Below, piece by piece: positions 10,110 through 29,015 of a stretch of 42,771 nt of DNA. The stretch is from contig JADFXX010000014.1 of the NCBI GenBank assembly GCA_015233335.1, forward strand, positions 1 to 42,771, read 5' to 3'. The notes beneath the pieces were generated by a model. That model was not told the origin of the DNA. It was given only the letters and a program-made list of their open reading frames with translations, and did no database searches. This stretch comes from Candidatus Omnitrophota bacterium (GTDB lineage: Bacteria; Omnitrophota; Gorgyraeia; Zapsychrales; Fredricksoniimonadaceae). The first letter of the stretch is position 1, and each line of letters opens with the position of its first letter. Position numbers and translations under genes: made by a program.

Positions 10110-10138
10110 ACTATACCACCCTTTCAAACCCCTGTCAA
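10110..10138 (-). promoter_or_regulatory. sigma70 promoter of the pyr operon
   Basis: TTGACA-17 nt-TATAGT with extended -10 TG; the -35 box lies in the last codons of the upstream CDS. Confidence 0.75.
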
Positions 10139-12748
10139 GGAAGCCTCTTCCTTGGCTGGACCGATACCCAATAGCGGTAGGGGGTTTTGGATGGGGGTGA
10201 CATTGATGATGACCGGACTAAAACCCTGAAAACCGCCCTGCATCAGCTTATTAAGTTGGGCGGGGTCGAATTGAACATTAATGATCTTACCATTACGTTT
10301 GATGCTGATCTGATTTAAGTCGATACCGCCATTTACAACTGATTGTTTAGTTTTTGAGACGGCTTTTGGTGTGTTCATCATGGCATTGTCTATCGCGCCG
10401 GAGGCTATTAGTTTTCTAACAATAACATCATTCCCCTCATTGCGAGCTATCGACAATGGTGTCCCGCCGATATTATCTTTCGCGTTAACATTAGCCCCGT
10501 TATTAAGTAACAGTTCGACGATGTCCAGATGCCCACCCAAAGATGCATACATCAAAGCTGTCCACTCATCTCTATCTCTCGCGTCAACTTTTGCCCCTCT
10601 CTTAAGTAGCAGGTCCACAACTTCTTTATGGCCGGCCCCGGCTGCCATCATCAAAACTGTTCCTTCGTCATCGCCCATTCTTGCGTCAGGGCTAACTCCC
10701 CTTACAAGCAACCGCTCCGCGACTTTCCAATTACCCTTCTGAGCTGCCATAAACAAAGCTGTAACGGCATACTGGCTTTTCGTATCAATATCAGCCCCAT
10801 TCTCAAGTAGTAGCATTATGTTGTCTGCCCATCCCATGATGAACGCAGCGCCCCTCAAAACTGTCTCACCGGCTCTAGTTTTCGCATTAACATCAGCCCC
10901 TTTGTTAATCAATTGCCTCATGACATTGATATAATTATTCTTAGCTGCCATAAATAACGCCGTCTCACCCAGGTTGGTCTCTGCCTTGGCATCCGCTCCA
11001 TTTGCAAGCAGTAACTCCACAACATCATCCCGGCCCGCTAAAGCCGCTCCCATTAGAGCTGTCCAGCCATCTTTCGTTTTCGCGTTAACTGCGGCCTTTT
11101 TCCTAATCAATAGCTCTACGATGTCCTTACGTCCCGCCATAGCCGCAAACATTAAAGCCGTCACATCCTCAACCTTCATGTCAATATCGATCCTTTGAGC
11201 AAGCATCTTATTTATTCCCTCTATATCCCCATTCCAAGCCGCAGCCGCCCATGCTTTTTGTAAATTGCTCTCCATCGAATTATCTTTTTTAGATAACATT
11301 TGATTAAGCATGGCAGAGTCTTTACCTTTTCCATCAATCGTATTGAGCATGGAATGGTCTCTTGGCCTAGCAGGCGGGGGATTATATATTCTTGGCGGAG
11401 TTGGGACTGGTGGCGTAAACGTTGGGTTTTGTTTTTGAGGCACATATGGTTGACGTTGCGGTGTATAAGACTGCGGCGGAGTCACCGGCTTAATGGGAGT
11501 ATTTTCATTAGGCTGGGTATTTATTTCTGTACAGCTTACAGTAAAAAGCAAAAAGACGCTGGTTGCGGCTGTAAGGATTTTTGACAGCATGGACGGATCT
11601 TTGGTGCGCTTTAAATTGATTTGCATTGGGATGCCGCCGGAAAAATATTTGCGCGGGATAGTTGTTCCTGTCGAGATTACTTCGTCGGCTGCGCCTCCTC
11701 GCAATGACGCGCCAATGGGTTCATCTTTAATGTAATTGAACACGCCCTTTTTGTAGGCTTTAAGATAACGCTGATAAATTTGTTCTTTAATTGCAGGGTC
11801 GTCCAGATTGACTCCTGCGACTTTTTTCTTATTGGTGTAGACGGCATCCAAAAGGCCGTTTTGGATGGTTTCTTTGTACCATTTGGCGAGTATCAGGGCT
11901 TGGTAGATTTGGCGCAGCGGGGAGAAATTCCTTCCGGTGTTTACCTCTTTTTCGATTTCGGGAAGAATGATTTCTCTTACGATTTGAGAAGCTAGAGCAT
12001 GCGCTTTGTCATCCTGAGCGTTAGCGAAGGATCTTGAGGCACCTTTAGATTCTTCGGTCGTGCTTTGCACTCCCTCAAAATGACGGTTTAGTGCCGTGTA
12101 ATCTTCGTCCAGCATTACTTTTAATGTGGATTGGGTCACATATGCGGTATTGCCGTTTTCATAAACCTGGGCTTGGTCAGGAAGAATCCATACTTTATTA
12201 AAAGTATTTACGGGGACATCTGTTGTGCCGAACTGCTCTTGAACTTTTGCGTAGACCCTGCTCCAGAATTCTTTGCCTAAATCTTTCTCCGGATAAATAA
12301 GGGAAGCCGTCAACTGCTTTAAGATATAATCTTGGGCTAACAGGTCCCGGCCCAGGTCTGTTTGGCCTAAAGCTTCGGGGACTATGCGCTCTTTTTCATA
12401 AGGGGATAAATTGACCCATAAATCGCCTTCAGGAATGGTTAGGCCTGCCAGGAAATATTTGACCAGTTGGTTGGCTTGTTGTTTTAGTTGTTCTTGTTGG
12501 GATTGCTTCGCTTCTCTCGCAATGACACTGGAATCGCTGCCCGTATCAACAATAAACTGAAACTCTAGGGGTTTTTGGGGGTTAACTATCAGGCCTTTTA
12601 AGGCTAACGGTGTAAATGGTGCGGATTCCCCTACCATGGTTCCCGGCACAGGAAGCTGATTAATGCCAAAGTCCTGAGCATGGACGTATTGTAGGTTACT
12701 AATAATGAAGGAAAAACAGACTAGGGAAGCAATTAGGCGTTTGAGCAT
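10124..12748 (-). CDS. Secreted modular protein: signal peptide, conserved N-domain, Pro-rich and ankyrin-repeat cargo, GGIDL C-domain
   Basis: Signal peptide ..VHA|Q; N- and C-terminal regions homologous to 25476..29015; about 9 ankyrin repeats (G-x-TALMxAA...GA-VNAK). Confidence 0.9.
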   Translation of the reverse strand: MLKRLIASLVCFSFIISNLQYVHAQDFGINQLPVPGTMVGESAPFTPLALKGLIVNPQKPLEFQFIVDTGSDSSVIAREAKQSQQEQLKQQANQLVKYFLAGLTIPEGDLWVNLSPYEKERIVPEALGQTDLGRDLLAQDYILKQLTASLIYPEKDLGKEFWSRVYAKVQEQFGTTDVPVNTFNKVWILPDQAQVYENGNTAYVTQSTLKVMLDEDYTALNRHFEGVQSTTEESKGASRSFANAQDDKAHALASQIVREIILPEIEKEVNTGRNFSPLRQIYQALILAKWYKETIQNGLLDAVYTNKKKVAGVNLDDPAIKEQIYQRYLKAYKKGVFNYIKDEPIGASLRGGAADEVISTGTTIPRKYFSGGIPMQINLKRTKDPSMLSKILTAATSVFLLFTVSCTEINTQPNENTPIKPVTPPQSYTPQRQPYVPQKQNPTFTPPVPTPPRIYNPPPARPRDHSMLNTIDGKGKDSAMLNQMLSKKDNSMESNLQKAWAAAAWNGDIEGINKMLAQRIDIDMKVEDVTALMFAAMAGRKDIVELLIRKKAAVNAKTKDGWTALMGAALAGRDDVVELLLANGADAKAETNLGETALFMAAKNNYINVMRQLINKGADVNAKTRAGETVLRGAAFIMGWADNIMLLLENGADIDTKSQYAVTALFMAAQKGNWKVAERLLVRGVSPDARMGDDEGTVLMMAAGAGHKEVVDLLLKRGAKVDARDRDEWTALMYASLGGHLDIVELLLNNGANVNAKDNIGGTPLSIARNEGNDVIVRKLIASGAIDNAMMNTPKAVSKTKQSVVNGGIDLNQISIKRNGKIINVQFDPAQLNKLMQGGFQGFSPVIINVTPIQNPLPLLGIGPAKEEASLTGV
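10395..11270 (-). repeat. Ankyrin repeat array (about 9 x 33 aa)
   Basis: Recurring TALM/TALF/TPL-AA...G..D.V.LL..GADVNAK units. Confidence 0.88.
11673..11708. repeat. REP/RPE-like palindromic element, in frame within the CDS
   Basis: Minus strand GTCATTGCGAGGAGGCGCAGCCGACGAAGTAATCTC; encodes SLRGGAADEVIS, absent from the paralog. Confidence 0.75.
12008..12084. repeat. Inverted pair of REP/RPE-like elements, in frame within the CDS
   Basis: GTCATCCTGAGCGTTAGCGAAGGATCT ... AGATTCTTCGGTCGTGCTTTGCACTCCCTCAAAATGAC forms a long hairpin; same family as the intergenic copy at 12949. Confidence 0.8.
12499..12526. repeat. REP/RPE-like palindromic element, in frame within the CDS
   Basis: Minus strand GTCATTGCGAGAGAAGCGAAGCAATCCC; encodes VIAREAKQS, absent from the paralog. 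Confidence 0.7.
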
Positions 12749-12820
12749 TAATTTCCTTGAGTTGAATAAAAGACTAACAGAATATACAATGACGGGATTA
12801 AGAAAACGCTTCCTTAAGAA

Positions 12821-12848
12821 AGGATACCATATTTTCTGGAGTTGTCAA
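12821..12848 (-). promoter_or_regulatory. Putative sigma70 promoter of the 874-aa modular gene
   Basis: TTGACA-16 nt-TATCCT with TG extension. Confidence 0.5.
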
Positions 12849-12948
12849 ATTAGGCGGACCAAAAGAATATCTCGTAAAATGCTTAAAATAATGAAGTTAC
12901 AGCCTTACTAAAAAAATTATAATCTCCCGGTAAAATTAAATCGCATTA

Positions 12949-12976
12949 AGATCCTTCGGCTACGCCTCAGGATGAC
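12949..12976. repeat. Intergenic REP-like palindromic element
   Basis: AGATCCTTCGGCTACGCCTCAGGATGAC, nearly the reverse complement of 12008..12034; followed by a partial AGGATGACA copy. Confidence 0.75.
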
Positions 12977-13015
12977 ACCATAGCGTCTCTAAGGATGACA
13001 TCATATTGTTTATAA

Positions 13016-13684
13016 TTACATCTGGGTGCTATTGCCTAATAGAACAAACTCACCCTTTGGGGGGTGTTGGCTGAAATGCTCGATCAATAGGCTGGCTTTA
13101 TCTTTACGGACTTCTTCAAATTTCTTAGTGAGCTCGCGGGCGACTACGATCGTGGGGTCGTCCAAGACTTCCTGCATGTCTTTTAGCGTTTTAAGCAGGC
13201 GGTGCGGGGATTCGTAGAAAATGAACGTCCCCTTTTCCTGTTTTAAAACAGCTAATTTATTGCGTCTTGCCCCGCTTTTGGGCGGCAGAAATCCCTCAAA
13301 TACGAAACGGTGCGCAGGCAAGCCGGAAGCTGTCAAAGCGCTGATACAAGCACTCACACCGGGAATCACGGTCATCGGAATGCTGTTTTCTTGGGCTAAA
13401 CGGATCAGATGATAGCCGGGATCGCTGATACCGGGGGTGCCTGCATCGGAAACCAAGGCAATATTCTTCCCCTCTTTTAAAAGGTTGATGAGATGATCTG
13501 CTTTTTTAATCTGATTGTGCTCGAAAAAGGAGGTCAGAGGTTTTTTGATCTGATAAGCGTCGAGAAGTATCTGGGTGTGCCGGGTATCTTCGGCTGCGAT
13601 CAAGTCAACGGACTTAAGCGTTTCTATAGCTCTTAGGGTTATGTCTTTAAGGTTGCCTATGGGGGTTGAGATGATGTACAGCAC
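13016..13684 (-). CDS. rsmI: 16S rRNA (cytidine1402-2'-O)-methyltransferase
   Basis: TPIGNLKDITLRA, AEDTR, SDAGTPGISDPG, FYESPHR, RELTKKFEE. Confidence 0.96.
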   Translation of the reverse strand: MLYIISTPIGNLKDITLRAIETLKSVDLIAAEDTRHTQILLDAYQIKKPLTSFFEHNQIKKADHLINLLKEGKNIALVSDAGTPGISDPGYHLIRLAQENSIPMTVIPGVSACISALTASGLPAHRFVFEGFLPPKSGARRNKLAVLKQEKGTFIFYESPHRLLKTLKDMQEVLDDPTIVVARELTKKFEEVRKDKASLLIEHFSQHPPKGEFVLLGNSTQM

Positions 13685-15513
13685 TATTCGACTGTTACGG
13701 ATTTAGCTAAATTGCGGGGTTGGTCTACGTCACAGCCGCGCTTGACCGCGATGAAATAGGCTAAAAGCTGTAAAGGCAGGATCACCGTCAGCGGTGAGAG
13801 AAGCTCGTGGGTTAACGGCACTCCCATCACAGAATCCGCGTTGAGGTGGATTTCCTTGTCGCCGCTGGTTGCGACTGCGATCACATTGCCCTTGCGCGCT
13901 CTGATCTCTTGGATGTTGGAGGCCATTTTTTCATAGACATGGGATTGGGGATTAATGCACACTACTGCCCGGTATTCGTCGATCAATGCGATCGGCCCAT
14001 GCTTCATCTCGCCTGCGGCATAACCTTCCGCAGGGATATAGGAGATTTCCTTTAGCTTTAACGCCCCTTCCAGCGCCGAAGGATAGTTGACATGACGACC
14101 CAAAAAGAGAAAACAGCCGAAATGAGAATTAGATTCCGCTACTTTTTGGATATGATGCGTGTTCTTTAGAATTTCTTTATATATCGATGGAATATGAACG
14201 AGCTGGCGTATCAATTCTTTAGCCTTCTGGGGCGGCAATGTTTTGTGTATTTTCGCCAGCTTCAAAGCGATGAGATAGAACATCATAAGCTGTGCACTAT
14301 ACGCCTTGGTTGATGCCACCCCGATCTCAGGGCCGGCATACGTATATAAAATACCGTCGGCTTCACGGGCCAGGGAAGATCCTACCACGTTGCAAATCGT
14401 AATGACACGGGCCCCTTTAGCACGGGCCTCACGGGCCGCGGCTAGAGTATCTGCCGTCTCACCAGACTGGCTGACAGCGATCACCAAGGTATGTTTGTCG
14501 ATCAAAGGATCACGATAACGGTATTCACTGGAAGTGTCCACCTCAACGGGCAGACGGACTAATGTTTCGATGATATATTTACCGACCATCCCGGCGTGAT
14601 ACGCCGTGCCGCAAGCCACCACCAAAATTTTGCGCACATTCTTTAAAGTCTCCTCAGAAAGCCCCAATCCCTCTAAATTCAAACGCCCGCCCTTCAGGCG
14701 TAAATTGATCATTTGGGCCAGAACGGATGGCTGCTCATGGATCTCCTTGAGCATAAAATGCGCAAAACCTTCCTTGCGGGCGGCAGTAACATTAAAAGAG
14801 ACTGTGTCTATTTTCGTGGCAACTTTTTTCCCGTCAAAAGTAAAAAGCTCTTGTTTTTCTTTAGTTAAAACAGCCATCTGCCCGTCTTTAAGATAGATCA
14901 CACGCCGTGTAAAATCCAAAATAGCCGGCACATCGGAGGCAATAAAGTTTTCTTTATCCCCTACCCCTATAATGAGAGGTGAACCAACACGGGCCGCTAC
15001 CAGAACGTCCGGATGCTCACGACAGATAACTCCAAGAGCAAACGCACCTTTAAGCTGGCGCAAGGCCCCGCGCACAGCCTCTGCCAGATCCCCTTTATAT
15101 AAAGAAGCGATCAAATGCGGAATTACTTCCGAATCAGTTTCAGAAACAAACCTGCATCCTTTTTTCTTCAAAGCTTCTCTTAGGGCCTGATAATTTTCAA
15201 TGATGCCGTTGTGAACAACTGCGATATGGTGCTTATTATCTGTATGCGGATGTGAATTGATGTCTGACGGAAACCCATGAGTGGCCCAGCGGGTGTGAGA
15301 AATCCCCGTATGGGCATAGGGCACCGGCTGGGTGCGGATGAGCTCTTCTAAATTACGGATCTTGCCTTTAGATTTACGGACAACGAGATGGGCATTATGG
15401 TCTAAAAAACCCACACCGCTGGAATCATACCCTCGATATTCGAGCTTTTTAAGGCTCTCGATCAAGATGGGCAGGGCGTCTCTGCTTCCGACGTAACCGA
15501 CAATTCCGCACAT
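13684..15513 (-). CDS. glmS: Glutamine--fructose-6-phosphate aminotransferase
   Basis: MCGIVG, EYRGYDS, HTRWATHG, SQSGETADT, C-terminal PRNLAKSVTVE. Confidence 0.98.
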   Translation of the reverse strand: MCGIVGYVGSRDALPILIESLKKLEYRGYDSSGVGFLDHNAHLVVRKSKGKIRNLEELIRTQPVPYAHTGISHTRWATHGFPSDINSHPHTDNKHHIAVVHNGIIENYQALREALKKKGCRFVSETDSEVIPHLIASLYKGDLAEAVRGALRQLKGAFALGVICREHPDVLVAARVGSPLIIGVGDKENFIASDVPAILDFTRRVIYLKDGQMAVLTKEKQELFTFDGKKVATKIDTVSFNVTAARKEGFAHFMLKEIHEQPSVLAQMINLRLKGGRLNLEGLGLSEETLKNVRKILVVACGTAYHAGMVGKYIIETLVRLPVEVDTSSEYRYRDPLIDKHTLVIAVSQSGETADTLAAAREARAKGARVITICNVVGSSLAREADGILYTYAGPEIGVASTKAYSAQLMMFYLIALKLAKIHKTLPPQKAKELIRQLVHIPSIYKEILKNTHHIQKVAESNSHFGCFLFLGRHVNYPSALEGALKLKEISYIPAEGYAAGEMKHGPIALIDEYRAVVCINPQSHVYEKMASNIQEIRARKGNVIAVATSGDKEIHLNADSVMGVPLTHELLSPLTVILPLQLLAYFIAVKRGCDVDQPRNLAKSVTVE

Positions 15514-15548
15514 AGTAAATATGGCCCGGTAAGGTTATGCAGCTTGGT

Positions 15549-15794
15549 TTACGCTGGTTTAATGTTGATGAGCGTGATTACTTTATTATAACCGTTTTTA
15601 CGGCGGGTAAAATAAACTTCGCCATCGCACGCGGCCGTCAAAGAACTGCGGCCGATGACATTAAGACCGCGCTTCCACTGCTCTCCCTGACGGGTCAAAA
15701 TAGTGCCGGATTTGACCTTCTGGCCACCGGAAACCTTGATGCCTGCGGTTTCACAATAATATTTGCTGGTAATTCCACCTACACGACCGCCCAT
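15549..15794 (-). CDS. rpmA: 50S ribosomal protein L27, divergent N-terminus
   Basis: GIKVSGGQKVKSGTILTRQ..G.NV....L.A..DGEVYF core of bL27; GAGGAGG Shine-Dalgarno. Confidence 0.8.
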   Translation of the reverse strand: MGGRVGGITSKYYCETAGIKVSGGQKVKSGTILTRQGEQWKRGLNVIGRSSLTAACDGEVYFTRRKNGYNKVITLINIKPA

Positions 15795-15885
15795 AGCTAA
15801 AACCTCCTCTATTGAAACCCCTTATACGAAGGGGACAATATACACTAAAACCATTTTTTTGCAAAGAAAAATTATGCCCTATCCC

Positions 15886-16743
15886 CTATTTTCCCCCGGC
15901 TAGGATCTTGTCAATTTCCGCTTTATAACTATTGATATCACGCGCCATGGTTTTGTGGCCGTTAAGATAAAATGTCGGCGTACCGCGCACATCCACCTTG
16001 GAACCTAACTGCATATCATCCTGGATCTGTTTTTCCCACTGAGCATCTTTATTTTTATAATCAGCTATCAGTTTATTGTAATCCAAGCCTAATGTCTTCG
16101 CATATTCTTTAATTTTGGCATCAGAAACATCACCGCCGTTGGCCAGTAAATTTTCCATCATCCCCTGAAACTTGCCTTGCTCATTGGCCGCCAACGCTAA
16201 TTTGGCTGCCGGACGGGCATTAGGGTGAAACGGTAGAGGAAAATTCTTAACGATCACTTGCACACGGCCGGGATAAGCCGCTAAAACATCCTTGACCACC
16301 GGATAAAATCGGGAACAGAACGGACATTGAAAATCGGAAAATTCAACGATGGTGATCGGTGCATCCTTCTTGCCGATAATGGGAGAGCTGCCGATAGTAA
16401 TATCATAAACCTTATTAAAATCTTCGGAGGGAGGCGCGGGAGGCTGTGCTTGGCGCTGACCCTGATTTGCGAGGGCGCTCGTCATCTTCTCATCCAGCTT
16501 TGTCAACTGACTTTGCACGTCAGCTAGACGCTTATCAATGGCACTCGAATTATTACCATTGTTTAACAAGGCCAACTTATCTTCAATATATTTTTGCCGA
16601 ATGGCAATTTCAGTAACTTTGGCATTCAAAGGACTGATGGCAACGCCTACGGTATTACCAATACCCATTAAAAGGCCTATCCCCAACAAAACACCGATGA
16701 CAATAACCAATAAAACAACAACCGCGTTATTTTTGTTTTCCAT
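15886..16743 (-). CDS. Membrane-anchored DsbA/thioredoxin_4-family disulfide oxidoreductase
   Basis: N-terminal TM helix, coiled coil, EFSDFQCPFC, FPLPFH, GTPTF; start at MENKNN. Confidence 0.92.
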   Translation of the reverse strand: MENKNNAVVVLLVIVIGVLLGIGLLMGIGNTVGVAISPLNAKVTEIAIRQKYIEDKLALLNNGNNSSAIDKRLADVQSQLTKLDEKMTSALANQGQRQAQPPAPPSEDFNKVYDITIGSSPIIGKKDAPITIVEFSDFQCPFCSRFYPVVKDVLAAYPGRVQVIVKNFPLPFHPNARPAAKLALAANEQGKFQGMMENLLANGGDVSDAKIKEYAKTLGLDYNKLIADYKNKDAQWEKQIQDDMQLGSKVDVRGTPTFYLNGHKTMARDINSYKAEIDKILAGGK

Positions 16744-16821
16744 AAATACCCCCTTAATTAGTACGCACATCCTACATCAAATTAAAAAACCAAACAATAA
16801 ATTTTTATGCCAAAATCGGAA

Positions 16822-17652
16822 TTACAAATCGATATGCCCGTAATGTTCAATAATATACTTCATATCTGTCCAACGCTTACGGCAGCCGAAAACCGCCACC
16901 ACCAGAATATCATTGCCTTTGGATATATACCCCACAAAACATGACTGTGCTTCGTTAGTATAGCCGGTCTTGCCAAAGACATGTTTTTTCCAATTGAGAA
17001 AAAGAGATTTGTTGTGGGATTTTAAAAAACAGCGGTGTCTTTCTCTGGAATAGATAACATAGTATTTTAAGGTGATCGCCTGCCGGAAGAAATCATTCTT
17101 AAGCGCTTGAGTAAAGATCAAGGCCATGTCAGCAGCGGTGGTGTATTGAGCACCGCTGGAGGGAAGGCCGTGAGGATTGGCAAAATGGCTGTGTGCCGCC
17201 CCCATCTGCCGGGCACGGACATTCATCATATCAACAAACTTCTCCTCTGATCCCGCGACGGCTTCTGCCAAAGCCACGGCAGCGTCATTGGCCGACTTTA
17301 GAATAAGCCCATAAAGCAGGTCCCGCACGCGGTAATTTTCACCGGCCCTAAGCCCCAGTTTGGTCTGCGGAACTTGAGTAGCGCGTAGGCTGATTGTCAC
17401 ATATTGGTCCAAGGAAAGCCTCTCTAATACCAATATCGCCGTCAAAACCTTGGTTGTGCTGGCCGGAAAAACTTCGCGGTCAGCCCCCAAGTCGAAATAA
17501 CGATAATTACGGGCAGGGTCCCAGAGAAGCGCTGTGGTCGCTGTCACGTGATAAGGTCTGTACCTAAGATTATAAAAAGCCCTTCCTGAATCAGGAAAAG
17601 CCAAAACAGCGATCAGACCGGCTATAAGAGAGACGCGAAAGAATTTTAACAT
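16822..17652 (-). CDS. D-alanyl-D-alanine carboxypeptidase (peptidase S11)
   Basis: Signal peptide; PASTTK (SxxK), SAND (SxN), NPHGL, KTG. Confidence 0.93.
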   Translation of the reverse strand: MLKFFRVSLIAGLIAVLAFPDSGRAFYNLRYRPYHVTATTALLWDPARNYRYFDLGADREVFPASTTKVLTAILVLERLSLDQYVTISLRATQVPQTKLGLRAGENYRVRDLLYGLILKSANDAAVALAEAVAGSEEKFVDMMNVRARQMGAAHSHFANPHGLPSSGAQYTTAADMALIFTQALKNDFFRQAITLKYYVIYSRERHRCFLKSHNKSLFLNWKKHVFGKTGYTNEAQSCFVGYISKGNDILVVAVFGCRKRWTDMKYIIEHYGHIDL

Positions 17653-17728
17653 AGTCTGCAATATACTTTAGGAATTAACAGGAAACAATATTTAATTTAA
17701 AAATCAAAACCATATGGATACACTCTGC

Positions 17729-17901
17729 ATGGCTAAGCAGCTATTATGTATTCGGCACATTTAGGAATTCTTTGCCAAAAGTCTGCGAGGCTTTACGGCA
17801 AGAATGTTCCAAATGAAGAGAATCTTTAGAACATTGTTGCCGTAAACCGAAGCAGACGGCAAAAATATTCCGTGCCGAATACATAATAGCTGCTTAGCCA
17901 T
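17729..17901. mobile_element. 173-bp MITE-like long palindrome
   Basis: Perfect 30-bp terminal inverted repeat ATGGCTAAGCAGCTATTATGTATTCGGCAC (17729-17758 / 17872-17901) plus nested inner inverted segments; no ORF. Confidence 0.7.
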
Positions 17902-19233: not shown

Positions 19234-19276
19234 ATCATTTCCTTTATTTTTCAAATGGGAGACGTCCCTATTTATT

Positions 19277-20271: not shown

Positions 20272-20275
20272 CGAA

Positions 20276-21184: not shown

Positions 21185-21246
21185 AAGCTCAGGCGCGATT
21201 AAAAGTATTTGCTCCGGGCCTTAAATGTATGCTATAAAATACCCCT

Positions 21247-23754
21247 GTGCAAACCATAACCCCCATGGTCAAACAATATCGTGCAATCAAGGCCCGCCAT
21301 CAGGACGCCATTCTTTTCTTTCGTCTAGGCGACTTTTACGAAATGTTCTTTGAAGATGCCACACAGGCCTCCGCTCTCCTTGATCTGGTGCTGACCTCGC
21401 GAGGGTCGGATGTCTCCGGCCGTATCCCCATGTGCGGTGTCCCTTATCATTCCAGCGACAACTACATCGCCAAGCTCATTAAAGCAGGAAAAAAAGTTGC
21501 CATCTGCGAACAAATGGAAGACCCTGCCCTAAGCCAAGGTATCGTTAAACGCGATGTCATCCGCATTATCAGCGCCGGGACATATTTGGACGAATCTACG
21601 GATTCGCGTTATCTTCTAGCTCTTGTTCCCGGGAGCACTTTCGGGGCCGCTTTTATCGATAATTCCGGCGGAACTATTTTTGCCAATGAACTGCCAGCCT
21701 CCTCGATCATTGAACTTTTAGCCAAACTCCCCGTTTGTGAATGCATCTATCCTCAAGCCCAGGAAGAAGCCCTCAAAGATCTGTTTGCCCATCCATTAGT
21801 CAAAATGCGTGCTATTACTCTAAGCCCTTTGGACGATTGGATTTTTAACAGGGACTCAGGGTTAAAGCGCTTGTGTGATCATCTGGGTACGTCGAGCCTC
21901 AAAGGCTTTGGTGTTGATGATCTGCCTTTGGCGCAGTCAGCCGCAGGTGCTTTGCTGGAATATTTAAAAACCATGAATAAAACCAGTCTTAAGCATATTG
22001 ACAAGATCGCTCTTTATGCCAAGGATGACCATGTCTTTATTTCTCCAGCCGCGCATTATGGCCTGGAGTTAGAGTCCTTGACCGAGACCCTTGATTTGAC
22101 TGCTACTTCCATGGGGCGCAGGGCTTTTCGTTATTGGCTGTACCATCCGCTCAAAGACATCTCGGCCATCCAGCTGCGCCAGCAAGCAGCCAAAGAATTG
22201 GTCAATATCCCTCGGCTCGGAGAATGTTTAAAGAATTTGCCTGATTTACAAAAAGCCCTCTCCCGCCTTTCCTGCGGCTGCGGCTCTATCAAAGATATCC
22301 TGAGTCTGCGTCAAGGCCTATTGCGAGTCCCTTTGATCGCTGAAACGCTGGGCAACAGTTCAAATCCGCTTTTAGAAATTCAAGACCTGCCTTCTTTGCG
22401 CGAATTATTGACTAAAACTATCAATCCCGACGTGCCACTCTCCAAGCCTGAAGGTAAAATGGTACAGCCGGGAATTGATAAAGATTTAGATGAACTTAAA
22501 AACATCCTGGAAAACGGAAGGCAGTGGCTCGCCCATTATCAGGCAGAAGAGATCAAAAAAACCGGTATATCGTCGCTTAAGGTCGGCTTCAATAATATTT
22601 TTGGCTTTTATATCGAGATCACCAAAACCCATCAGAAAAACGCACCTGCTCACTATGTGCGCAAACAAACCCTGGTCAACGGCGAGCGTTATATCACCCA
22701 GGAGCTCAAAGAATACGAAGAAAAGTTTTTAACCGCCCAGGATAAAATCTTAACCATCGAAAAAACCATTATTCGCCGCATCGAAACCGAAATCTTGTCT
22801 CAAGCGGCCTCTTTGCACCAAGTCTGCCACCAATTAGCCACTCTTGACTGTTTAAATGTTTTCGCTGGGCTGTCTATGTGGACCGGTTATATTTTTCCTG
22901 AAGTTAATGCCTCGACTGTTTTGGACATCAAGGACGGCCGTCATCCGGTTGTTGAAAAAACAGTAACGGACAACTTCATCGCCAACAGCACACTTTTGGA
23001 TACCAACGACAATCACCTGATCATTTTAACCGGCCCCAACATGGCAGGCAAATCTACCTACATCCGACAAAGCGCAATTTTAGTCCTTTTGGCCCAAATG
23101 GGCTCCCCCATCCCTGCGGCCTCGGCTTCAATCGGGATTGTAGACAAAATTTTTACCCGTATCGGCGCCCATGATGATATCGCCCAAGGTCAAAGCACGT
23201 TTATGGTTGAAATGACAGAGACGGCTGATATTCTCAATAATCTAACTCCGCGTTCATTAGTCATTCTTGATGAGATCGGCCGCGGGACCTCCACTTCTGA
23301 CGGATTAAGTCTGGCTTGGGGTCTAGCCGAACATTTGCATACATCCTGTACGCGCACACTTTTTGCTACGCATTTCCATGAATTGACAGCCCTGGCCGAC
23401 CGCCTGCCGGGTGTTAAAAATTACAATGTCGCTGTGCGCGAATGGAAGGACAAGATCATTTTTATGCATAAAATCGTTCCCGGCGGCTCGGATGATTCTT
23501 ATGGTATTTATGTGGCGAAGCTCGCCGGGATTCCGGAATCAGTGATCAAACGTTCAAAAGAAATCCTTTGCGAATTAGAGATCGGCACCCCAAACCCCTA
23601 CGCTCAAAAAGACAAACAATTAAACCTTTTTGTCCCAACTCCGCAACCGGTCATGGATGAGGTGCGTGCAAGTTTGGAAAAAATTGACATCAACACCTTG
23701 ACACCTATGGAAGCATTAAAAAAACTGGATGAACTAAAACGTAAATTACTATAA
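21247..23754 (+). CDS. mutS: DNA mismatch repair protein MutS
   Basis: TPMVKQY, GDFYEMF, TGPNMAGKSTY, STFMVEM, DEIGRGTS, ATHFHEL. Confidence 0.98.
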   Translation: MQTITPMVKQYRAIKARHQDAILFFRLGDFYEMFFEDATQASALLDLVLTSRGSDVSGRIPMCGVPYHSSDNYIAKLIKAGKKVAICEQMEDPALSQGIVKRDVIRIISAGTYLDESTDSRYLLALVPGSTFGAAFIDNSGGTIFANELPASSIIELLAKLPVCECIYPQAQEEALKDLFAHPLVKMRAITLSPLDDWIFNRDSGLKRLCDHLGTSSLKGFGVDDLPLAQSAAGALLEYLKTMNKTSLKHIDKIALYAKDDHVFISPAAHYGLELESLTETLDLTATSMGRRAFRYWLYHPLKDISAIQLRQQAAKELVNIPRLGECLKNLPDLQKALSRLSCGCGSIKDILSLRQGLLRVPLIAETLGNSSNPLLEIQDLPSLRELLTKTINPDVPLSKPEGKMVQPGIDKDLDELKNILENGRQWLAHYQAEEIKKTGISSLKVGFNNIFGFYIEITKTHQKNAPAHYVRKQTLVNGERYITQELKEYEEKFLTAQDKILTIEKTIIRRIETEILSQAASLHQVCHQLATLDCLNVFAGLSMWTGYIFPEVNASTVLDIKDGRHPVVEKTVTDNFIANSTLLDTNDNHLIILTGPNMAGKSTYIRQSAILVLLAQMGSPIPAASASIGIVDKIFTRIGAHDDIAQGQSTFMVEMTETADILNNLTPRSLVILDEIGRGTSTSDGLSLAWGLAEHLHTSCTRTLFATHFHELTALADRLPGVKNYNVAVREWKDKIIFMHKIVPGGSDDSYGIYVAKLAGIPESVIKRSKEILCELEIGTPNPYAQKDKQLNLFVPTPQPVMDEVRASLEKIDINTLTPMEALKKLDELKRKLL

Positions 23755-25475
23755 TGTCTCGAGTCAACATTCTCCCCCCAGATGTAATTGCCAAGATTGC
23801 CGCCGGAGAAGCGGTCGACCGGCCGGCTTCTGTAGTCAAAGAACTTCTGGAAAATGCCCTTGACGCCGGTGCTACCAGCATTGAAATCTACCTCAAAGAA
23901 GCCGGACGTGAATTGATCCACATCAAAGACAACGGTTCAGGCATCCCTCATGATGACCTGGAAAAAATCTTTGGGCGCCATGCCACAAGCAAAATTACTG
24001 CCATCGAAGATCTGGAGAACCTGCATTCAATGGGTTTCCGAGGCGAAGCCTTATATTCGATCGCCGCAGTCAGCGATGTCCTGCTCACTTCACGCACCTT
24101 GGAAAAAGAAGGCTGGCAAATTCATTTAAGAGGCGGAATCCGCCAGAATCTTGAGCCTGCCAGTCTTGCCCACACTGGTACGAACATCAAAATCACTGAG
24201 CTATTCTTTAACACTCCGGCCCGACGCAAGTTCCTTAAAAACAATAGCTCAGAATTAAATCAGATCATCAATATCGTGCTTCCTTATACCTTGATTCATC
24301 CTGAGAAACGTTTTCTACTGACCCATGCCGGACGCAGTATATTAGATCTACGCAGCGCCCCCTCGCGCATAGACCGGATGGCCGCGGCCCTGAATATAGA
24401 CATGCACCATTTGCTTTCGACCGATCAAGAATTCGTCGAAGAAAAGATCCGCGTACGCATGATCTTAGGCGATATCAATATCCAACGCCCCCGCCGGGAT
24501 ATGCAGTTTATTTTTATCAATGATCGTCCTGTTGAGAGCAAAAACCTGAGTTTCAATCTTAATGACGTATACAAGCTTATTTTGTCACCGGGAGTGTACG
24601 GCGCTTTTATGATCGATATTGGATTAGATCCATCCCATGTAGATGTCAATATCCATCCCACCAAACGTGAAGTCAGGCTTAAAGATGAGGGCCGCCTTAT
24701 TTCGATATTGCGCCGCATGACAGAATACCAGCTCATGCAAAAAGGTCAGGCAAAAGAATTTTCCCTTCCCCCGCAAGAAGGAGGATTGCCGGCTAATCAA
24801 ATGATCTTTGCTCCCGGACAATTACAAGCAAACTTTAATCCGGGAGCTTACGCTCATACAAAAGATACCGGTCTTCCTCTGGATTTTCAACTTTTCGGCC
24901 GTGAAAACACCCTGCGTTTTAAATTTGAAAAAAGCCGATTTGTAGGAAATTTTCTGCAGAAATACCTGATCTTTGAGGCGGATGAATCGCTGTTGATCGT
25001 TGACCAGCATGCGGCACAAGAACGCATCATGTTTGAGGAATTTAAGAATCAAATCGAAAAATCTCAGGTTGAAAGCCAACCCTTGCTGACACCTATACTA
25101 CTTAGATTGACACCGCAGGAAAAAATTGCGTGGGAAGAAAACCAGGAGAGATTGGCTTTAGCCGGTATTGAATCCACTCAGTTTGATCAAGACACCATTG
25201 CCCTGCAAACCCAACCGCTTTTGCTTAAAAATATCGAAATGGTCGTGCGCACCCTTTTAGCCGGAGGGGAAACTCCCCGCTTAGACATAGATACTTTAGC
25301 CCGCCGCGCCTGTAAAGCTTCAATTACAGCCGGGGACAAACTAGACAGCTCCCAAGCTGATCACCAGCGCAAAGAATTACTCAAATGTGTCGATCCTTTT
25401 ACTTGCCCCCATGGCCGCCCGACAGTCATTGAAGTAACCCGAGACTTTCTCGACCGCCAATTTCTGCGTTCTTAA
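23754..25475 (+). CDS. mutL: DNA mismatch repair protein MutL (endonuclease-type)
   Basis: IAAGE, KELLENALDAG, GFRGEAL, DVNIHPTK, DQHAAQER, CPHGRP. Confidence 0.98.
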   Translation: MSRVNILPPDVIAKIAAGEAVDRPASVVKELLENALDAGATSIEIYLKEAGRELIHIKDNGSGIPHDDLEKIFGRHATSKITAIEDLENLHSMGFRGEALYSIAAVSDVLLTSRTLEKEGWQIHLRGGIRQNLEPASLAHTGTNIKITELFFNTPARRKFLKNNSSELNQIINIVLPYTLIHPEKRFLLTHAGRSILDLRSAPSRIDRMAAALNIDMHHLLSTDQEFVEEKIRVRMILGDINIQRPRRDMQFIFINDRPVESKNLSFNLNDVYKLILSPGVYGAFMIDIGLDPSHVDVNIHPTKREVRLKDEGRLISILRRMTEYQLMQKGQAKEFSLPPQEGGLPANQMIFAPGQLQANFNPGAYAHTKDTGLPLDFQLFGRENTLRFKFEKSRFVGNFLQKYLIFEADESLLIVDQHAAQERIMFEEFKNQIEKSQVESQPLLTPILLRLTPQEKIAWEENQERLALAGIESTQFDQDTIALQTQPLLLKNIEMVVRTLLAGGETPRLDIDTLARRACKASITAGDKLDSSQADHQRKELLKCVDPFTCPHGRPTVIEVTRDFLDRQFLRS

Positions 25476-28400
25476 TCAAGCTACGGGAGAACTCGCCTCT
25501 TCTTTTAAACCAAGAAGCATCCTCAAATTTGTGACCGGGAGAATAGATTCTATCCTAAACTCAAGCCCGTCAAATCCGCTGTGCTTGATGCGCTGTATCA
25601 TAGAGCGGTCAAACTGCATTTGCACCCCATTGGCATCCTTCCTGATATTCATCTGCATATTGGCACGGTTTAAATCGATACCACCGACCTCAGAAGGATT
25701 GCCATGCATGGCCTCATCAAGTTTTGCTTTCAAAGCCTTTCTTTCTGCACGGATACGGCTGCGATCGATCAACTTGGGCTCCATATTCTCCAAATCACCG
25801 ATCAGTTCATCCCAATTGTATGGGGTCCCGTCCAAAACCGTCTTCTTATCGCGCAAATCCTTAATGTCAACATCAATCGGATGCCGCGTCGTAAAAACCT
25901 CCCCCTTTGTGGTAAACAGCGTCCCCAAAACATCGCCCTGAGCTGTTGCCCCTATTCCATTGGCCGTATGAACCTCGTTAACATACGCATTCTTGGCGAT
26001 CGTTGCAACCTCCCCTTGAATATCACTGGAGACGATCACAACACCATCTTCGATGGTGATCTTATTCACCCCAGCGGGCGGCTTGATATCTAAATACGAA
26101 TCCTCGATACGTACATTATTTCCGATCACAAGCTCAACTCCTGCCGGAACCTTGATCTTACTATGCCGGATCACGTGTGTCCCTGTATAGCTGACCTGGC
26201 CTTCAATAGTTACGTCCGGCGCAACATCCCCCTGCAGGGGCCGGCCAAATAATCCGTTAAAAATATCTTTCATGTCCCCTTGGGCAGTTCCTTCATCCAA
26301 AATGCGCTTGGCTTCGGCCGGAGACCCTGCATCTGCCCATACAGGTCCAAAATCCACTCCGACCATACCCCCAGCCATTTTCTTGACTTCCTGGGCTAAA
26401 TTGTACAGATCTTCCCAATCCCGTTGGGTGTATGTTGTCGCTCTTTCTGCCCACACGTTTAGATCAGTAGTGTCTACGGTCTGCCCCTTCTTTGCTGCTT
26501 TATCTTGCGCGGCTGCCAAGGTTTTCCTGGCTGTTGCCCAATATTGATCCATCCATTTTTTCTTACCGGCTTCATTGGCCGCATAGCTCATCGGCGTCAA
26601 GATGTGCCCCGACCAGTCCGGCAAACTGTTAATCGGAAACTTGCCCGGCTCCAGCTGTCTGGCCCAAAAACTGCCATTGTTCTTTTCTGTAGGTCGCGAA
26701 TAAAGCTCGACCATCTTTTGCATCACATCCCGCCTGATCGTAAAATAGAACGTATTGGCGTAGGTCTTTCTTCCGCCGGCATCTAAAATTCTCTTGACCT
26801 TTGCGGCTAATGCGCTATTTTCTACCATTAATCGCTGCGCCTGTTCCTGCGCATTTCGCCATTCTTCTCGGGTCATCCCAGAAAACCTATCTGCACGCTT
26901 CCCAAAAAATTCTTTGTCCTTCTCCTTCTTTGTTTCTCCTTTAAAATTCCATACATCTGCCTTGACCACAAACGGTAATAACTGCGCGGCTAAATCTTCC
27001 CCTGCCAAGCTCATATACTTAAGCAGTTCTGCGCCTGCGGCTTGGCTCGTGATCCCCGCTACCTCGGCCTTCCGAGCGGCTTCATCTTCATTCGCATTCT
27101 CTAATGTGTTGCCCAATATTTTATAATTCAACTCCCACAAATCCGGCTTCTCAACAAACCCGTTGGGTTTCACCCTTCCCTCTTTATCTAATAACATCTG
27201 ACCTAAATCTGCTAATCCATACTGTACGGCAAAACCTTCTTCCAAAGCCGGGGTTCCCTTCGCATACAGATAAAATCCTTTTTTCCCGCTGTACTGCTTA
27301 AACATCTCTGCTCCCGGCAATATGACATTATCGCAGGGTACTACCACAAAATACTCCCCCGCAGGCAACCCATAGGCCAGCGCCTTCACCTGCTCAATTC
27401 CCTGCTCCAGCAATGACCGGCCATACAACACGATTTCGCCTTTGTTCCCGGCATTGACCGTTAACGATGCCGCACGAGTACCGCCGCCCGACTCCAAAGC
27501 GATCAAATGCACTCTGACCTTCCCCGCTTTGATATCATCTTCACTCATTGGAGTGGGAGCTAACTCATTTAATATTTTCTCTGCCAACGGCATAACACCC
27601 GGCACATTCCCCCAGTTATGTATGCCATCCGGTACCGAATATGCCCTCAAATATTTTGCCTGTCTAAATATTGACCCCGGATGTTCTGCATAATTTCTCG
27701 CGACCTCTGCCATCTCCTCTGCCGCACCGGCTCTGCCTTCCAGTCCTAATCCCTGAATCGTGATCCCAACCTCTAATTTCCCATCCTTGATAGCTTGCTC
27801 TTGATCGCCATTCATAATTGGAACCATGTTTAACGCGTCTTGAAGGGGTTTCGCAAGCATCGCCTTTTCGCCGCCTGGTATATTAACCGGTACTCGAGCT
27901 ACAAAGGTGTGTTCACTTCCCGGAAGTTCAGCTCCCACTGGCAGGCTTTGATGCCGTTTAATGACCTTTGACGGGTCACCATCAGGATAGACCTGCAGAC
28001 CGCCAGAAAAATACTTCCTAGGCTCTGTAGTTTGGGTGTTTTGGTCTGTCTCTTCTTTAATATAGTTGAACACCCCCTTCTTGTAAGCCTGTATATAGCG
28101 TTGAAAAATCTTGTCCTTCTCTGCCGGGTCATTGGCATTAATACCTACCTTGACCTTGCTTTGGTTACCATAGACCTGAGTTAAAAGAGCATCTTTAAGC
28201 GCCATCTTATACCAGCTGGCTAAAATCATGGAATAAAACATTTGCCGCAAAGGAACAAAATTAGCCCCTTGATTGACTTCCTTTTCAAGTTCAGGAAGGA
28301 CAACTTCACGCAGGACCTGAGAGCTTAAAGAATGCGAATTTTGAGTTTCATCACTATTAATATGCTTGCTAAGCGCCTTATAATCCTCTTCCAACATGAC

Positions 28401-29015
28401 TTTCAAATGGGAACCTACGATAAAAGCTGTCTGTCCGTGCTCATACACATCCGCCCTCTCTGCTACGATCCAAACCTTGTTAAATGTGTCAACAGGAATG
28501 TTAGTGGTGCCGAATTGCTGCTGGGCTTTTGTATAGACCTTGTCCCAAAATGTCTTACCTAAATTCTTTTCCGGATAGATCAGCGATGCAGTTAATTGTT
28601 TGAGGATATAGTCCTGCGCCAACATATCCCGCCCCATCTGTGTCTGCCCCAAATTCTCTGAAATCATCCTGTCCTTCTCATAGGGAGACAGGTTGACCCA
28701 TAGGTCCTTTTCCGGCACCGTCATGGCCGCTAAGAAATACTTGATCAATTTCGTGGATTGCTCCTTTAAGTAGGAGCTGTTATTCGTCGCTTTAGCATCG
28801 TTACCGGCATCTAGAATAAAGTCAAAAAGAAAAGGATTTTCAGGATGCACTTTAAGCCCTTTAATTAGGAGGGGTTCAACCGCCGGACTTAAACTGATCA
28901 TGGTTCCGGGAGCAGGAAGTTGGGAAACCGCTTGAGCATAAACCCTGCCAGGAGGACAAATCATACCTGCAACAAACGTAAGAAGCACCCCGAACGAAAT
29001 GACGCGTTTAATCAT
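25476..29015 (-). CDS. Secreted modular protein: signal peptide, conserved N-domain, sugar-1-phosphate nucleotidyltransferase-like cargo with beta-helix, GGIDL C-domain
   Basis: Signal peptide ..VYA|Q; N- and C-domains paralogous to 10124..12748; LESGGGTR..L....NKG, VPCD, EKPD, WADAG, hexapeptide repeats. Confidence 0.88.
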   Translation of the reverse strand: MIKRVISFGVLLTFVAGMICPPGRVYAQAVSQLPAPGTMISLSPAVEPLLIKGLKVHPENPFLFDFILDAGNDAKATNNSSYLKEQSTKLIKYFLAAMTVPEKDLWVNLSPYEKDRMISENLGQTQMGRDMLAQDYILKQLTASLIYPEKNLGKTFWDKVYTKAQQQFGTTNIPVDTFNKVWIVAERADVYEHGQTAFIVGSHLKVMLEEDYKALSKHINSDETQNSHSLSSQVLREVVLPELEKEVNQGANFVPLRQMFYSMILASWYKMALKDALLTQVYGNQSKVKVGINANDPAEKDKIFQRYIQAYKKGVFNYIKEETDQNTQTTEPRKYFSGGLQVYPDGDPSKVIKRHQSLPVGAELPGSEHTFVARVPVNIPGGEKAMLAKPLQDALNMVPIMNGDQEQAIKDGKLEVGITIQGLGLEGRAGAAEEMAEVARNYAEHPGSIFRQAKYLRAYSVPDGIHNWGNVPGVMPLAEKILNELAPTPMSEDDIKAGKVRVHLIALESGGGTRAASLTVNAGNKGEIVLYGRSLLEQGIEQVKALAYGLPAGEYFVVVPCDNVILPGAEMFKQYSGKKGFYLYAKGTPALEEGFAVQYGLADLGQMLLDKEGRVKPNGFVEKPDLWELNYKILGNTLENANEDEAARKAEVAGITSQAAGAELLKYMSLAGEDLAAQLLPFVVKADVWNFKGETKKEKDKEFFGKRADRFSGMTREEWRNAQEQAQRLMVENSALAAKVKRILDAGGRKTYANTFYFTIRRDVMQKMVELYSRPTEKNNGSFWARQLEPGKFPINSLPDWSGHILTPMSYAANEAGKKKWMDQYWATARKTLAAAQDKAAKKGQTVDTTDLNVWAERATTYTQRDWEDLYNLAQEVKKMAGGMVGVDFGPVWADAGSPAEAKRILDEGTAQGDMKDIFNGLFGRPLQGDVAPDVTIEGQVSYTGTHVIRHSKIKVPAGVELVIGNNVRIEDSYLDIKPPAGVNKITIEDGVVIVSSDIQGEVATIAKNAYVNEVHTANGIGATAQGDVLGTLFTTKGEVFTTRHPIDVDIKDLRDKKTVLDGTPYNWDELIGDLENMEPKLIDRSRIRAERKALKAKLDEAMHGNPSEVGGIDLNRANMQMNIRKDANGVQMQFDRSMIQRIKHSGFDGLEFRIESILPVTNLRMLLGLKEEASSPVA

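Follow-up and report, generated by a model that had tools for sequence, protein, structure and literature searches.

Introduction

MARTX toxins carry conserved N- and C-terminal regions around variable, unrelated effector modules, which are freed by cuts in the linkers between modules; and in CdiA and Rhs proteins a demarcation motif (VENN and PxxxxDPxGL, respectively) lies between a conserved trafficking part and a variable toxin. Omnitrophota are widespread, uncultured, ultra-small bacteria that are thought to live off other cells. Here we analyse two proteins, P0001 and P0002, encoded in a 42,771-nucleotide stretch of a Candidatus Omnitrophota genome (assembly GCA_015233335.1, contig JADFXX010000014.1, positions 1 to 42,771; hereafter the window), which are members of a very large, uncharacterised protein family found so far in Omnitrophota only. 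The common layout of these proteins is a Sec signal peptide, an N-domain of ~340 amino acids (aa) ending in PRKYFSGG, at least one unrelated cargo module, and a GGIDL C-domain of ~65 aa. A short peptide, D-x-[A/S]-M, is real, specific to the family, and placed after the N-domain, between cargo units and before GGIDL.

The systems closest in logic to this arrangement are MARTX and the demarcation-motif polymorphic toxins, along with, as regards the tail, the cargo of the type IX secretion system (T9SS); the family lacks the testable defining features of each. As in MARTX, conserved ends enclose variable, unrelated modules, the Omnitrophota proteins being known here from their sequences and their cleavage being putative. 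Unlike MARTX toxins, to which we find no sequence or fold relationship, P0001 and P0002 have no RTX-type glycine-rich repeats and no in-cis cysteine protease domain (Pfam and NCBIfam, E <= 0.1). Moreover, the Omnitrophota family has a Sec signal peptide where MARTX uses type I secretion (T1SS), its junction is a defined D-x-A-M, it numbers 13 to >50 paralogues per genome rather than one, and its cargo retains signal peptides of its own. The likeness to CdiA and Rhs lies in the short conserved peptide at the border between the conserved part and the swappable domains, and in diversification by exchange. Unlike in those toxins, the variable part is internal and the C-terminus conserved, the cargo consists mostly of enzyme, regulator and repeat domains instead of recognisable toxins, no recurrent immunity-like gene lies downstream, and TpsB is not consistently present.

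T9SS cargo bears a C-terminal sorting domain (CTD), an Ig-like, seven-stranded beta-sandwich of ~80-100 aa. Such cargo is treated in a structural paper (PMC11285876). The Omnitrophota family likewise combines a Sec signal peptide with a small conserved C-domain on dozens of otherwise unrelated proteins per genome. Its C-domain is nevertheless shorter (~65 aa), matches no CTD model in Pfam or NCBIfam, and is modelled, at low confidence, as a hairpin and a helix; and, unlike T9SS cargo, the family also shares a large N-domain.

Within the phylum, giant proteins of the 'archaeovorin' type contain embedded HEAT, TPR, NUDIX, methyltransferase, PGM, receiver and PPDK domains, and passages of two preprints treat it as an open question whether the product is cut into pieces (10.1101/2023.11.21.568195; 10.64898/2026.06.07.730766). 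The carrier family occurs in the same phylum and draws on the same palette of embedded domains, and one giant open reading frame (ORF), in genome G311, bears both the C-domain and the motif. Unlike archaeovorins, carriers are mostly 600-4,000 aa long and are defined by the N-domain, whereas the giant ORFs of the source genome have neither N- nor C-domain and few copies of the motif (2 and 0). Those preprint passages mention neither this family nor the motif, and our literature searches turned up no account of either or of GGIDL; the giant-protein catalogues in the supplements of the two preprints might list members.

Results

Two proteins with common ends and unrelated middles

Both proteins are encoded on the minus strand, P0001 (874 aa) at 10124..12748 and P0002 (1179 aa) at 25476..29015. 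An earlier interpretation made from the letters of the DNA (the sequence-only reading) took them, without naming a strand, for paralogues with shared N- and C-domains and unrelated middles, and BLASTP bears this out: Residues 1-373 of P0001 match residues 1-340 of P0002 at 194/377 positions (51% identity, E 3e-122), and the C-termini match in 30 of 89 columns (34%, E 5e-9). Because all remaining pairs of segments are no better than E 4.8, the middles are unrelated. That of P0001 consists of ankyrin repeats, with two Pfam models exceeding their curated cut-offs (Ank_2, E 2.5e-75; Ank, E 2.7e-51), and that of P0002 had zero matches in Pfam and zero in a sequence search of the PDB. A lead for the latter comes from the protein Atlas, in which it resembles clusters of NDP-sugar pyrophosphorylase or NTP_transferase/Hexapep type (score 0.89-0.90).

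The same reading gave both proteins a Sec-type signal peptide, and this assignment stands. We assessed signal peptides by hydropathy and by eye, looking for an n-region with K or R, a hydrophobic core and an A-x-A-type end, and both proteins have the n/h/c layout (Table 1). Across the family, 122 of the 125 N-termini that could be anchored on LPxPG contain a hydrophobic 10-mer scoring >= 1.8, and they have A-x-A-like ends. The signal peptide is, moreover, unusually conserved in many homologues (MFKRLIASLVC.TFSFSNLQYVHAQDFSINQLPVPGTMV), beyond the needs of export alone.

Seven motif copies had been located in the two proteins, every one of them at its exact position; an eighth, DRSM, lies within the C-domain of P0002 and had been overlooked. 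As was also claimed, the last linker motif comes shortly before GGIDL, with 16 residues between its Met and GGIDL in P0001 and 7 in P0002.

A large family known so far only from Omnitrophota

The source genome (1.85 Mb in 38 contigs, 65% complete) contains 13 ORFs with the N-domain, ranging from 737 to 1,883 aa, and the C-domain ends 12 of them and, by a profile of these 12, occurs nowhere else in that genome. The thirteenth paralogue (L037, C38:77190-79934), whose cargo is a weak PGM_PMM_I domain, has an in-frame TAG within its N-domain and reaches within 2 bases of the contig end; either a pseudogene or a sequencing error is conceivable. More broadly, 113 of 132 N-domain proteins, and 159 of 194 in an enlarged collection, end in the C-domain. 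It is missing from all 12 family proteins shorter than 600 aa, which look truncated, and none of the 194 collected proteins joins the N- to the C-domain without cargo in between.

Among 8,000 scored candidates from public databases, 3,818 proteins match at E <= 1e-3, and the organism name given by the source is always Candidatus Omnitrophica or Omnitrophota. A 1.84-billion-protein library of cluster representatives yielded 7,801 clusters (50% identity) at E <= 1e-3, of which 6,089 match at E <= 1e-30; the best 150 library matches are 447-3,895 aa long, and in all of them the stretch that fits the N-domain best starts no later than residue 100. The N-domain occurs in 69 of 301 sampled Omnitrophota genomes and the C-domain in 31, all of them within the 69. 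Five genomes of 2.2-2.6 Mb from the same taxonomic family as the source have 51, 63, 86, 57 and 63 N-domain matches (41-79 candidates at first look). In one 2.6-Mb genome (G216) the 46 listed family ORFs total 80,130 aa, or about 9% of the genome; the share in the incomplete source genome is 2.4%.

The C-domain also appears in 168 small stand-alone proteins, mostly on short contigs; nine were inspected, and several of these keep D-x-A-M upstream and look like fragments. One ORF of 112 aa in genome G304 (C12, L057:1393-1731, plus strand) comprises barely more than the C-domain, lacks a signal peptide, has DKALL in place of D-x-A-M, and lies just downstream of a gene judged by eye to be ParB-like; it may be a genuine stand-alone C-domain.

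Cargo is exchanged within a lasting frame

The sequence-only reading supposed fixed ends with polymorphic cargo, and comparison of 156 family proteins (12,090 pairs) agrees with it. Identity in the N-domain is correlated with identity in the C-domain (Spearman 0.80), whereas the middles show any BLASTP match at all in 34% of the 83 pairs with N-domain identity >= 0.9, and in 13% of the 1,094 pairs at 0.8-0.9. The correlation between the two ends must be due in part to the shared descent of the organisms, such that the contrast with the cargo carries the argument: The N and C modules are a lasting frame, while cargo is exchanged.

Precomputed Pfam labels in homologues include ankyrin, HEAT, TPR, SAM methyltransferases, NUDIX, phosphofructokinase (PFK), hexokinase, NDK, PPDK, receiver domains, sigma-54 AAA, the RNA-polymerase alpha C-terminal domain, trypsin-like peptidase and AvrB, and about half of the listed homologues carry no label. 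The cargo of the source-genome paralogues is methyltransferase-like, NUDIX-like, PGM-like, or nothing recognisable. Where tested, cargo modules are extra, divergent copies: In 4 of 4 near-complete relatives, a stand-alone PGM/GlmM with 119.7-130.9 bits accompanies weaker cargo copies (28.7-88.2 bits), and PFK is solely stand-alone in the five genomes tested. These stand-alone genes lead us to reject, for PGM and PFK, the idea that cargo supplies the sole copy of an enzyme in the cell.

A junction motif conserved as a peptide

A check proposed with the sequence-only reading, i.e., whether the motif is enriched at cargo boundaries across homologues, came out strongly above the expectation from shuffling. 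The middles of 103 homologues hold 303 copies of [DE]x[AS]M, against 33.5 +/- 5.7 in residue shuffles (the maximum of 200 shuffles being 47), and in the N-domains of the same proteins it occurs 4 times against 8.7 expected. The first residue is D in 294 of the 303 copies, and 284 have A-M. When all patterns of the form a.bc were scanned in 156 middles (132,489 aa), D.AM ranked first, with 425 observed and 15.7 expected, and N.AM second, with 76 against 12.9. Family ORFs of the source genome have 1.94 copies of D.[AS]M per 1000 aa, 12 times the 0.16 of all its other ORFs of >= 150 aa.

The motif is also nonrandomly placed. Of 103 homologues, 77 have it in the 90 aa that follow YFSGG, and of 113 proteins, 62 have it in the 50 aa that precede GGIDL; a relaxed form, [DN].[AS][MLAQVI], falls within 30 aa before GGIDL in 125 of 156 proteins, compared with 24 expected from shuffles. 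A further 127 of the 303 copies are located deeper inside the middles (2.39 per 1000 aa). The gaps between successive copies (n = 309 in the 156-protein set) include 114 of domain size, at 101-300 aa, and 48 tandem ones of <= 15 aa.

One suggestion had been that the motif is a recombination joint, which would require conservation of the DNA, and in this respect the earlier interpretation is not supported. At 34 motif sites in 13 paralogues the Asp codon is GAT in 18 and GAC in 11, Ala is encoded by GCC (10), GCG (7), GCA (3) and GCT (2), TCN is used at 12, and no DNA-level signal is seen at these sites. Because codons vary synonymously and Ala and Ser interchange, selection acts on the peptide and not on a DNA site.

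The motif Met as the first residue of a module

The claim that cargo is Met-initiated fared well. In P0112, four tandem receiver domains are each opened by D.[AS]M-L-[SA]-G-K-R-[IV]-L-V-V-D-D, with Met at residues 408, 542, 674 and 806. The PFK model in P0011 begins 9 residues past a motif-like Met, as does the receiver in P0115, and the dehydrogenase in P0051 begins about 3 residues past one; in all, a motif Met stands no more than 10 residues before the domain start inferred from Pfam in 4 of the 7 cargo proteins examined. Stretches resembling a signal peptide or a transmembrane (TM) segment follow 48 of 434 motif Mets but 117 of 2,549 other Mets (odds ratio 2.6, p 6e-7). Among those after a motif Met, a number are of Sec type (K, a hydrophobic core, then A-x-A-Q), and two are lipobox-like, including one in P0001, where M-LSKILTAATSVFLLFTVS-C, which begins at the motif Met, is followed by a proline-rich tether and then the ankyrin repeats. 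Tat-like RR signals show the same placement: 5 of 7 start 1-13 residues past a motif Met or near-variant (e.g., DHAM-LGPSP-SRREFL... and DEAM-ISSV-TRRHFI...FMGC). The motif Met, then, is the first residue of the following module; and because it opens the next module, cargo modules have the look of complete precursors that were captured whole and joined on at their start codons.

Fusion at start codons raises the prospect that the motif is a functionless scar, in which a relic start codon follows an acceptor linker. The coincidence of Met with native-like module N-termini, including relic-looking signal peptides, is what a scar would leave. It would not account for D, A/S and M being kept across N-domains that are only about 50% identical, with unrelated middles and drifting codons, nor for motifs that stand in tandem where no module starts or that precede the conserved C-domain. 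Conservation across diverged proteins, along with these tandem and pre-C-domain copies, implies purifying selection on the peptide, and we consider a scar highly improbable.

Another view of the same Met is that the long ORFs are operons without stop codons, in which the motif ATG serves as an internal translation start, such that modules are also made separately. The Met is always ATG, the modules look complete from that Met onward, and Shine-Dalgarno-like words precede 8 of 29 motif ATGs, as against 39 of 277 internal Mets outside the motif and 190 of 464 ATGs that open long ORFs. This excess is small, however, and comes from only 29 sites; and an RNA signal would not be expected to preserve the residues D and A/S while their codons vary synonymously, or to tolerate the G/T change that interchanges Ala and Ser. 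Since internal initiation also leaves the conserved N and C modules without a role, we regard it as quite improbable.

Structure of the conserved ends

According to the sequence-only reading the conserved domains could not be assigned to any characterised family, and our searches likewise matched them to no characterised family or fold. Neither end was matched in Pfam or NCBIfam at E <= 0.1, apart from a sub-cut-off hit to RVP, and sequence and profile searches of the PDB, as well as fold searches, returned no match for the N-domain or the C-domain. The single PDB-profile match (huntingtin) falls in HEAT cargo columns outside the conserved domain, and the protein Atlas gave only hypothetical Omnitrophota clusters (0.84). 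The absence of a fold match does not prove that either fold is new.

The N-domain has 46 invariant columns in 90 sequences, and its AlphaFold2 (AF2) model, built from the 90-row alignment, is alpha/beta, with two beta-hairpins and six helices of 18-32 residues (predicted local distance difference test, pLDDT, 75.7; predicted template modelling score, pTM, 0.75). In this model the invariant PRKYFSGG stretch is of low confidence, and the strand that follows and the first motif are confident (pLDDT about 85). The C-domain model is weak (pLDDT 66, pTM 0.25) and shows a hairpin and a helix, with GF.PVIINI.P as an extended stretch. When cargo was treated as a looped-out insertion, the predicted complex of the N- and C-domains scored 0.14, relative to a mark of 0.32 and without controls, which speaks neither for nor against docking of the two.

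Three assignments were tried and rejected. Foldseek rows that would suggest an alpha-pore-forming toxin fold (NheA, SmhA, colicin Ia) have E > 0.2 and a TM-score of about 0.12, which is not evidence. The RVP hit, which would make the N-domain a retropepsin-like aspartic protease, has E 0.038 and 14.7 bits against a cut-off of 20.7, and the retropepsin triplet D-[TS]-G is not kept, its middle residue being T, A, K, R or Q among paralogues and one paralogue having H-K-G. Homology of the segment after YFSGG to the C-domain was also dismissed, in that hhalign aligned 4 columns only (GGI-) with a probability of 2%.

Distant relatives and giant ORFs

Elsewhere in the class, in a different taxonomic family, 13 of 16 genomes encode between one and eight homologues of the N-domain, which are 30-38% identical to it and again stand in ORFs as long as 5,011 aa; one of these genomes has an additional, closer copy at 52%. 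By these distant relatives, the deep hallmark of the family is a signal peptide followed by an N-domain ending in YFSGG, cargo, and GGID[LF]. The short C-domain and the motif, like the great expansion, are features of the source genome's order, plus three genomes beyond it. Two of the distant proteins, L081 (G097:C2) and L082 (G222:C7), share a tail after GGIDF that differs from the short C-domain and has conserved Cys residues (...EWQ.IE.M.NAGI.PS.QRIKEY...C...KV.SCI..ILR.EEE.C...).

Three giant ORFs bear on the distribution of these parts. That of G311 (C4:15000-66000, L068-L070) encodes about 11,400 aa with a TM/C39-like N-terminus and, by phmmer, no N-domain; it finishes with DQAM...DAAM...GGIDL and a C-domain, followed by about 55 further residues. 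As no N-domain was detected in this ORF, the C-module with its motif can evidently travel alone. The window has a giant ORF of its own, directly upstream of P0002 and in the same orientation; it spans 4,413 aa or more (29528-42769, minus strand, its 5' end open at the end of the window), contains four HTH_3 domains, one SAM-methyltransferase domain and one HAD hydrolase domain, and has no N-domain, no C-domain and 0 copies of D.[AS]M. Elsewhere in the source genome, a frame of 13,915 aa running from a contig edge (C7:2-41746, plus strand) has 2 copies.

Neighbourhood, export and protease candidates

The genes around P0001 and P0002 are housekeeping ones, i.e., a pyrimidine operon, glmS, genes for a DsbA-like protein and a D-Ala-D-Ala carboxypeptidase, and mutS-mutL. 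The pyrimidine row (window 1665-9394, minus strand) encodes OMP decarboxylase, dihydroorotate dehydrogenase B with its Fe-S/NAD subunit, a dihydroorotase-like protein, aspartate carbamoyltransferase and a phosphoribosyltransferase; interleaved with these are Fpg, a SLOG/lysine-decarboxylase-like gene and a membrane-protein-like ORF of 413 aa.

A second check proposed with the sequence-only reading, for co-occurrence with a specific secretion apparatus or protease, identified none by searches for secretin, TpsB, SprA, rhomboid and C39 and by scans of neighbouring genes. Secretin (PF00263) matches above cut-off number 4, 8, 4, 11 and 6 in the source genome (G000) and in G129, G139, G216 and G219, which is unusually high for genomes of 1.6-2.6 Mb. 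SprA_N (PF14349) was found in 0 of 5 genomes and equally in 0 of 14 control genomes. Rhomboid (PF01694), considered for the motifs that stand before a hydrophobic segment, was rejected as the processing enzyme, there being matches in 0 of 5 genomes and in 14 of 14 controls. Each near-complete relative has exactly one C39 peptidase, lying in every case inside an ORF of 17,411-39,654 aa (G129:C1:236908, G139:C13:51374, G216:C2:191125, G219:C68:110436), and none was found in the 65%-complete source genome; a role for C39 at the two GG motifs is pure speculation.

These searches also bear on whether carriers are the cargo of a known secretion route in divergent guise. A Sec signal with a C-domain recalls T9SS cargo, a conserved domain after the signal peptide recalls two-partner secretion (TPS), conserved ends around modular effectors recall MARTX, and secretins are numerous. 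Yet no Pfam or NCBIfam model of T9SS, TPS or MARTX matches P0001 or P0002, and T1SS toxins would not be expected to carry a Sec signal peptide. Unlike TpsA, these two proteins have no Pfam match to Haemagg_act, and the N-domain model, alpha/beta with six long helices, is not a beta-helix. TpsB (PF03865) was detected in only 2 of 5 genomes, with no match in G129 or G216 despite 94-95% completeness and 51 and 63 N-domain matches, the model, which did score in two relatives, having scored in 0 of 14 controls. We accord a known route scarcely any likelihood.

Table 1. Positions of the parts of P0001 and P0002 in the window.
Feature	Positions	Strand	Basis
P0001 Sec-type signal peptide, residues 1-24 (MLKRLIASLVCFSFIISNLQYVHA then QD)	12677..12748	-	n/h/c layout by eye; hydrophobic 10-mer 2.53; conserved across homologues
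P0001 N-domain, residues 25-372, ends in invariant PRKYFSGG	11633..12676	-	BLASTP, invariant columns, AF2 model
P0001 junction motif DPSM, residues 384-387	11588..11599	-	motif scan
P0001 internal lipoprotein-signal-peptide-like segment from motif Met (MLSKILTAATSVFLLFTVS-C, residues 387-406)	11531..11590	-	lipobox-like LFTVSC; sequence only
P0001 proline-rich linker, residues 407-463	11360..11530	-	translation
P0001 three tandem motifs, DHSM (11348-11359), DSAM (11309-11320) and DNSM (11273-11284), adjoining ankyrin cargo	11273..11359	-	
P0001 ankyrin cargo, residues ~498-786	10391..11257	-	Pfam; NCBIfam stretches cover 498-794
P0001 junction motif DNAM, residues 787-790	10379..10390	-	motif scan
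P0001 GGIDL C-domain, residues 807-874	10127..10330	-	BLASTP; profile match 3.2e-25; AF2
P0002 Sec-type signal peptide, residues 1-27	28935..29015	-	hydrophobic score 2.59
P0002 N-domain, residues 28-339, ends in PRKYFSGG	27999..28934	-	sequence comparison
P0002 junction motif EKAM, residues 383-386	27858..27869	-	motif scan
P0002 cargo, residues 387-1099; lead only: sugar-nucleotidyltransferase + left-handed beta-helix type	25719..27857	-	
P0002 junction motif DEAM, residues 1100-1103	25707..25718	-	motif scan
P0002 GGIDL C-domain, residues 1111-1179, internal DRSM	25479..25685	-	profile match 2.3e-30

Discussion

If carriers are polyprotein-like, the N and C modules would serve export or targeting, and an endoprotease would cut D-x-A-M immediately before Met, with a small residue (Ala or Ser) at P1, Asp or Asn at P3 and Met at P1'. 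Each cut would free a module with a native-like Met N-terminus and strip it of the N and C modules, and the cargo may then act as effectors of the host-dependent lifestyle that has been proposed for the phylum. We infer an endoproteolytic site because the small P1 residue, the redundancy of tandem copies, the position in linkers and the native-like N-termini all fit one; and since many cargo domains are cytoplasm-type enzymes and regulators in extra, divergent copies, they are most plausibly effectors. An exported carrier with cleavage at D-x-A-M and effector cargo is a possible account that we hold tentatively, its chances falling somewhat short of even. The original proposal of a cargo-export or polyprotein system is, on this evidence, partly supported.

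Several observations weigh against such a carrier. There are 17 proteins among the 156 without any motif, and the motif fades in the more distant members of the order. The two distant members that were inspected have RSYFSGG and a near-C-terminal GGIDF with no enrichment of D-x-A-M, and because they keep the N-domain, YFSGG and GGIDF in this way, the architecture works without the motif. In 3 of the 7 cargo proteins examined (P0108, P0116 and P0020) no motif stands near the start of the cargo domain. The AF2 model sets the first motif beside a confident strand, as a helical turn, which fits a purely structural role too. A hydrophobic segment follows the N-domain in 51 of 156 members, and some of these segments resemble stop-transfer sequences, being followed by K/R; such members would keep cargo and C-domain in their own cytoplasm, and the family may therefore have no single topology. 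Since 5 of 5 related genomes encode TatC, Tat-type cargo needs no foreign cell. The 13 paralogues have no recurring gene within 5 kb, and neither a cleavage product nor a dedicated protease or secretion partner was identified.

Much of this would be expected under the main rival, in which the proteins act intact as multidomain envelope proteins, such as binders or enzymes displayed on the surface, or, where a hydrophobic segment follows the N-domain, as receptor-like proteins whose N-domain is periplasmic and whose output domains are cytoplasmic, and D-x-A-M is an uncleaved helix N-cap or a docking motif for a shared partner. D and N interchange at the first position of the motif, as N-cap residues do; both AF2 models have a short helix at the motif, and the segment after YFSGG is confident; several members with the hydrophobic segment continue into K/R and then receiver or other cytoplasm-type domains (e.g., P0115 and P0010); the C-domain itself holds an F-D-x-x-M-L element; and relatives devoid of the motif retain the architecture. 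A cap or hinge would, however, leave unexplained why Met is near-invariant (with A-M and an initial D as frequent as described above), why copies occur in tandem 8-15 residues apart, and why Sec-, lipoprotein- and Tat-type signals start exactly at the motif Met. Moreover, because 59 of 103 members have no TM-like segment in their middles, a receptor topology cannot be general. We judge it rather unlikely that the proteins act intact.

The two accounts differ in what they imply for the C-domain. If the proteins were not cut, members with and without the hydrophobic segment would place the C-domain on opposite sides of the membrane. Processing would resolve this difficulty, yet that is no evidence of processing.

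A bolder form of the exported carrier is an undescribed bacterial platform for polyproteins or delivery. Whole precursors, each with its initiator Met and sometimes with a Sec, lipoprotein or Tat signal peptide as well, would be captured in frame between an N module for export and a C module, in at least 50 variants taking up about a tenth of a 2-Mb genome, and a dedicated endoprotease would cut at D-x-A-M before Met to yield native-looking proteins that start with Met. Release might occur inside an attacked host cell, whose Sec and Tat systems would route the signal-bearing cargo, and the same grammar might also explain how multidomain and giant proteins of Omnitrophota are cut. All of this together is a long shot, and we put it forward as such.

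What is at hand is a family of thousands of clusters, with dozens of copies per genome, that is without annotation or known fold. Its fixed frame, swappable cytoplasm-type cargo and sharp junction peptide make it a concrete candidate for the effector arsenal of Omnitrophota, and cutting at D-x-A-M before Met provides a testable hypothesis for a question that the giant-gene literature has left open. If the motif is a processing site, the protease and the two carrier modules would constitute a new system of export and processing, and possibly a modular scaffold.

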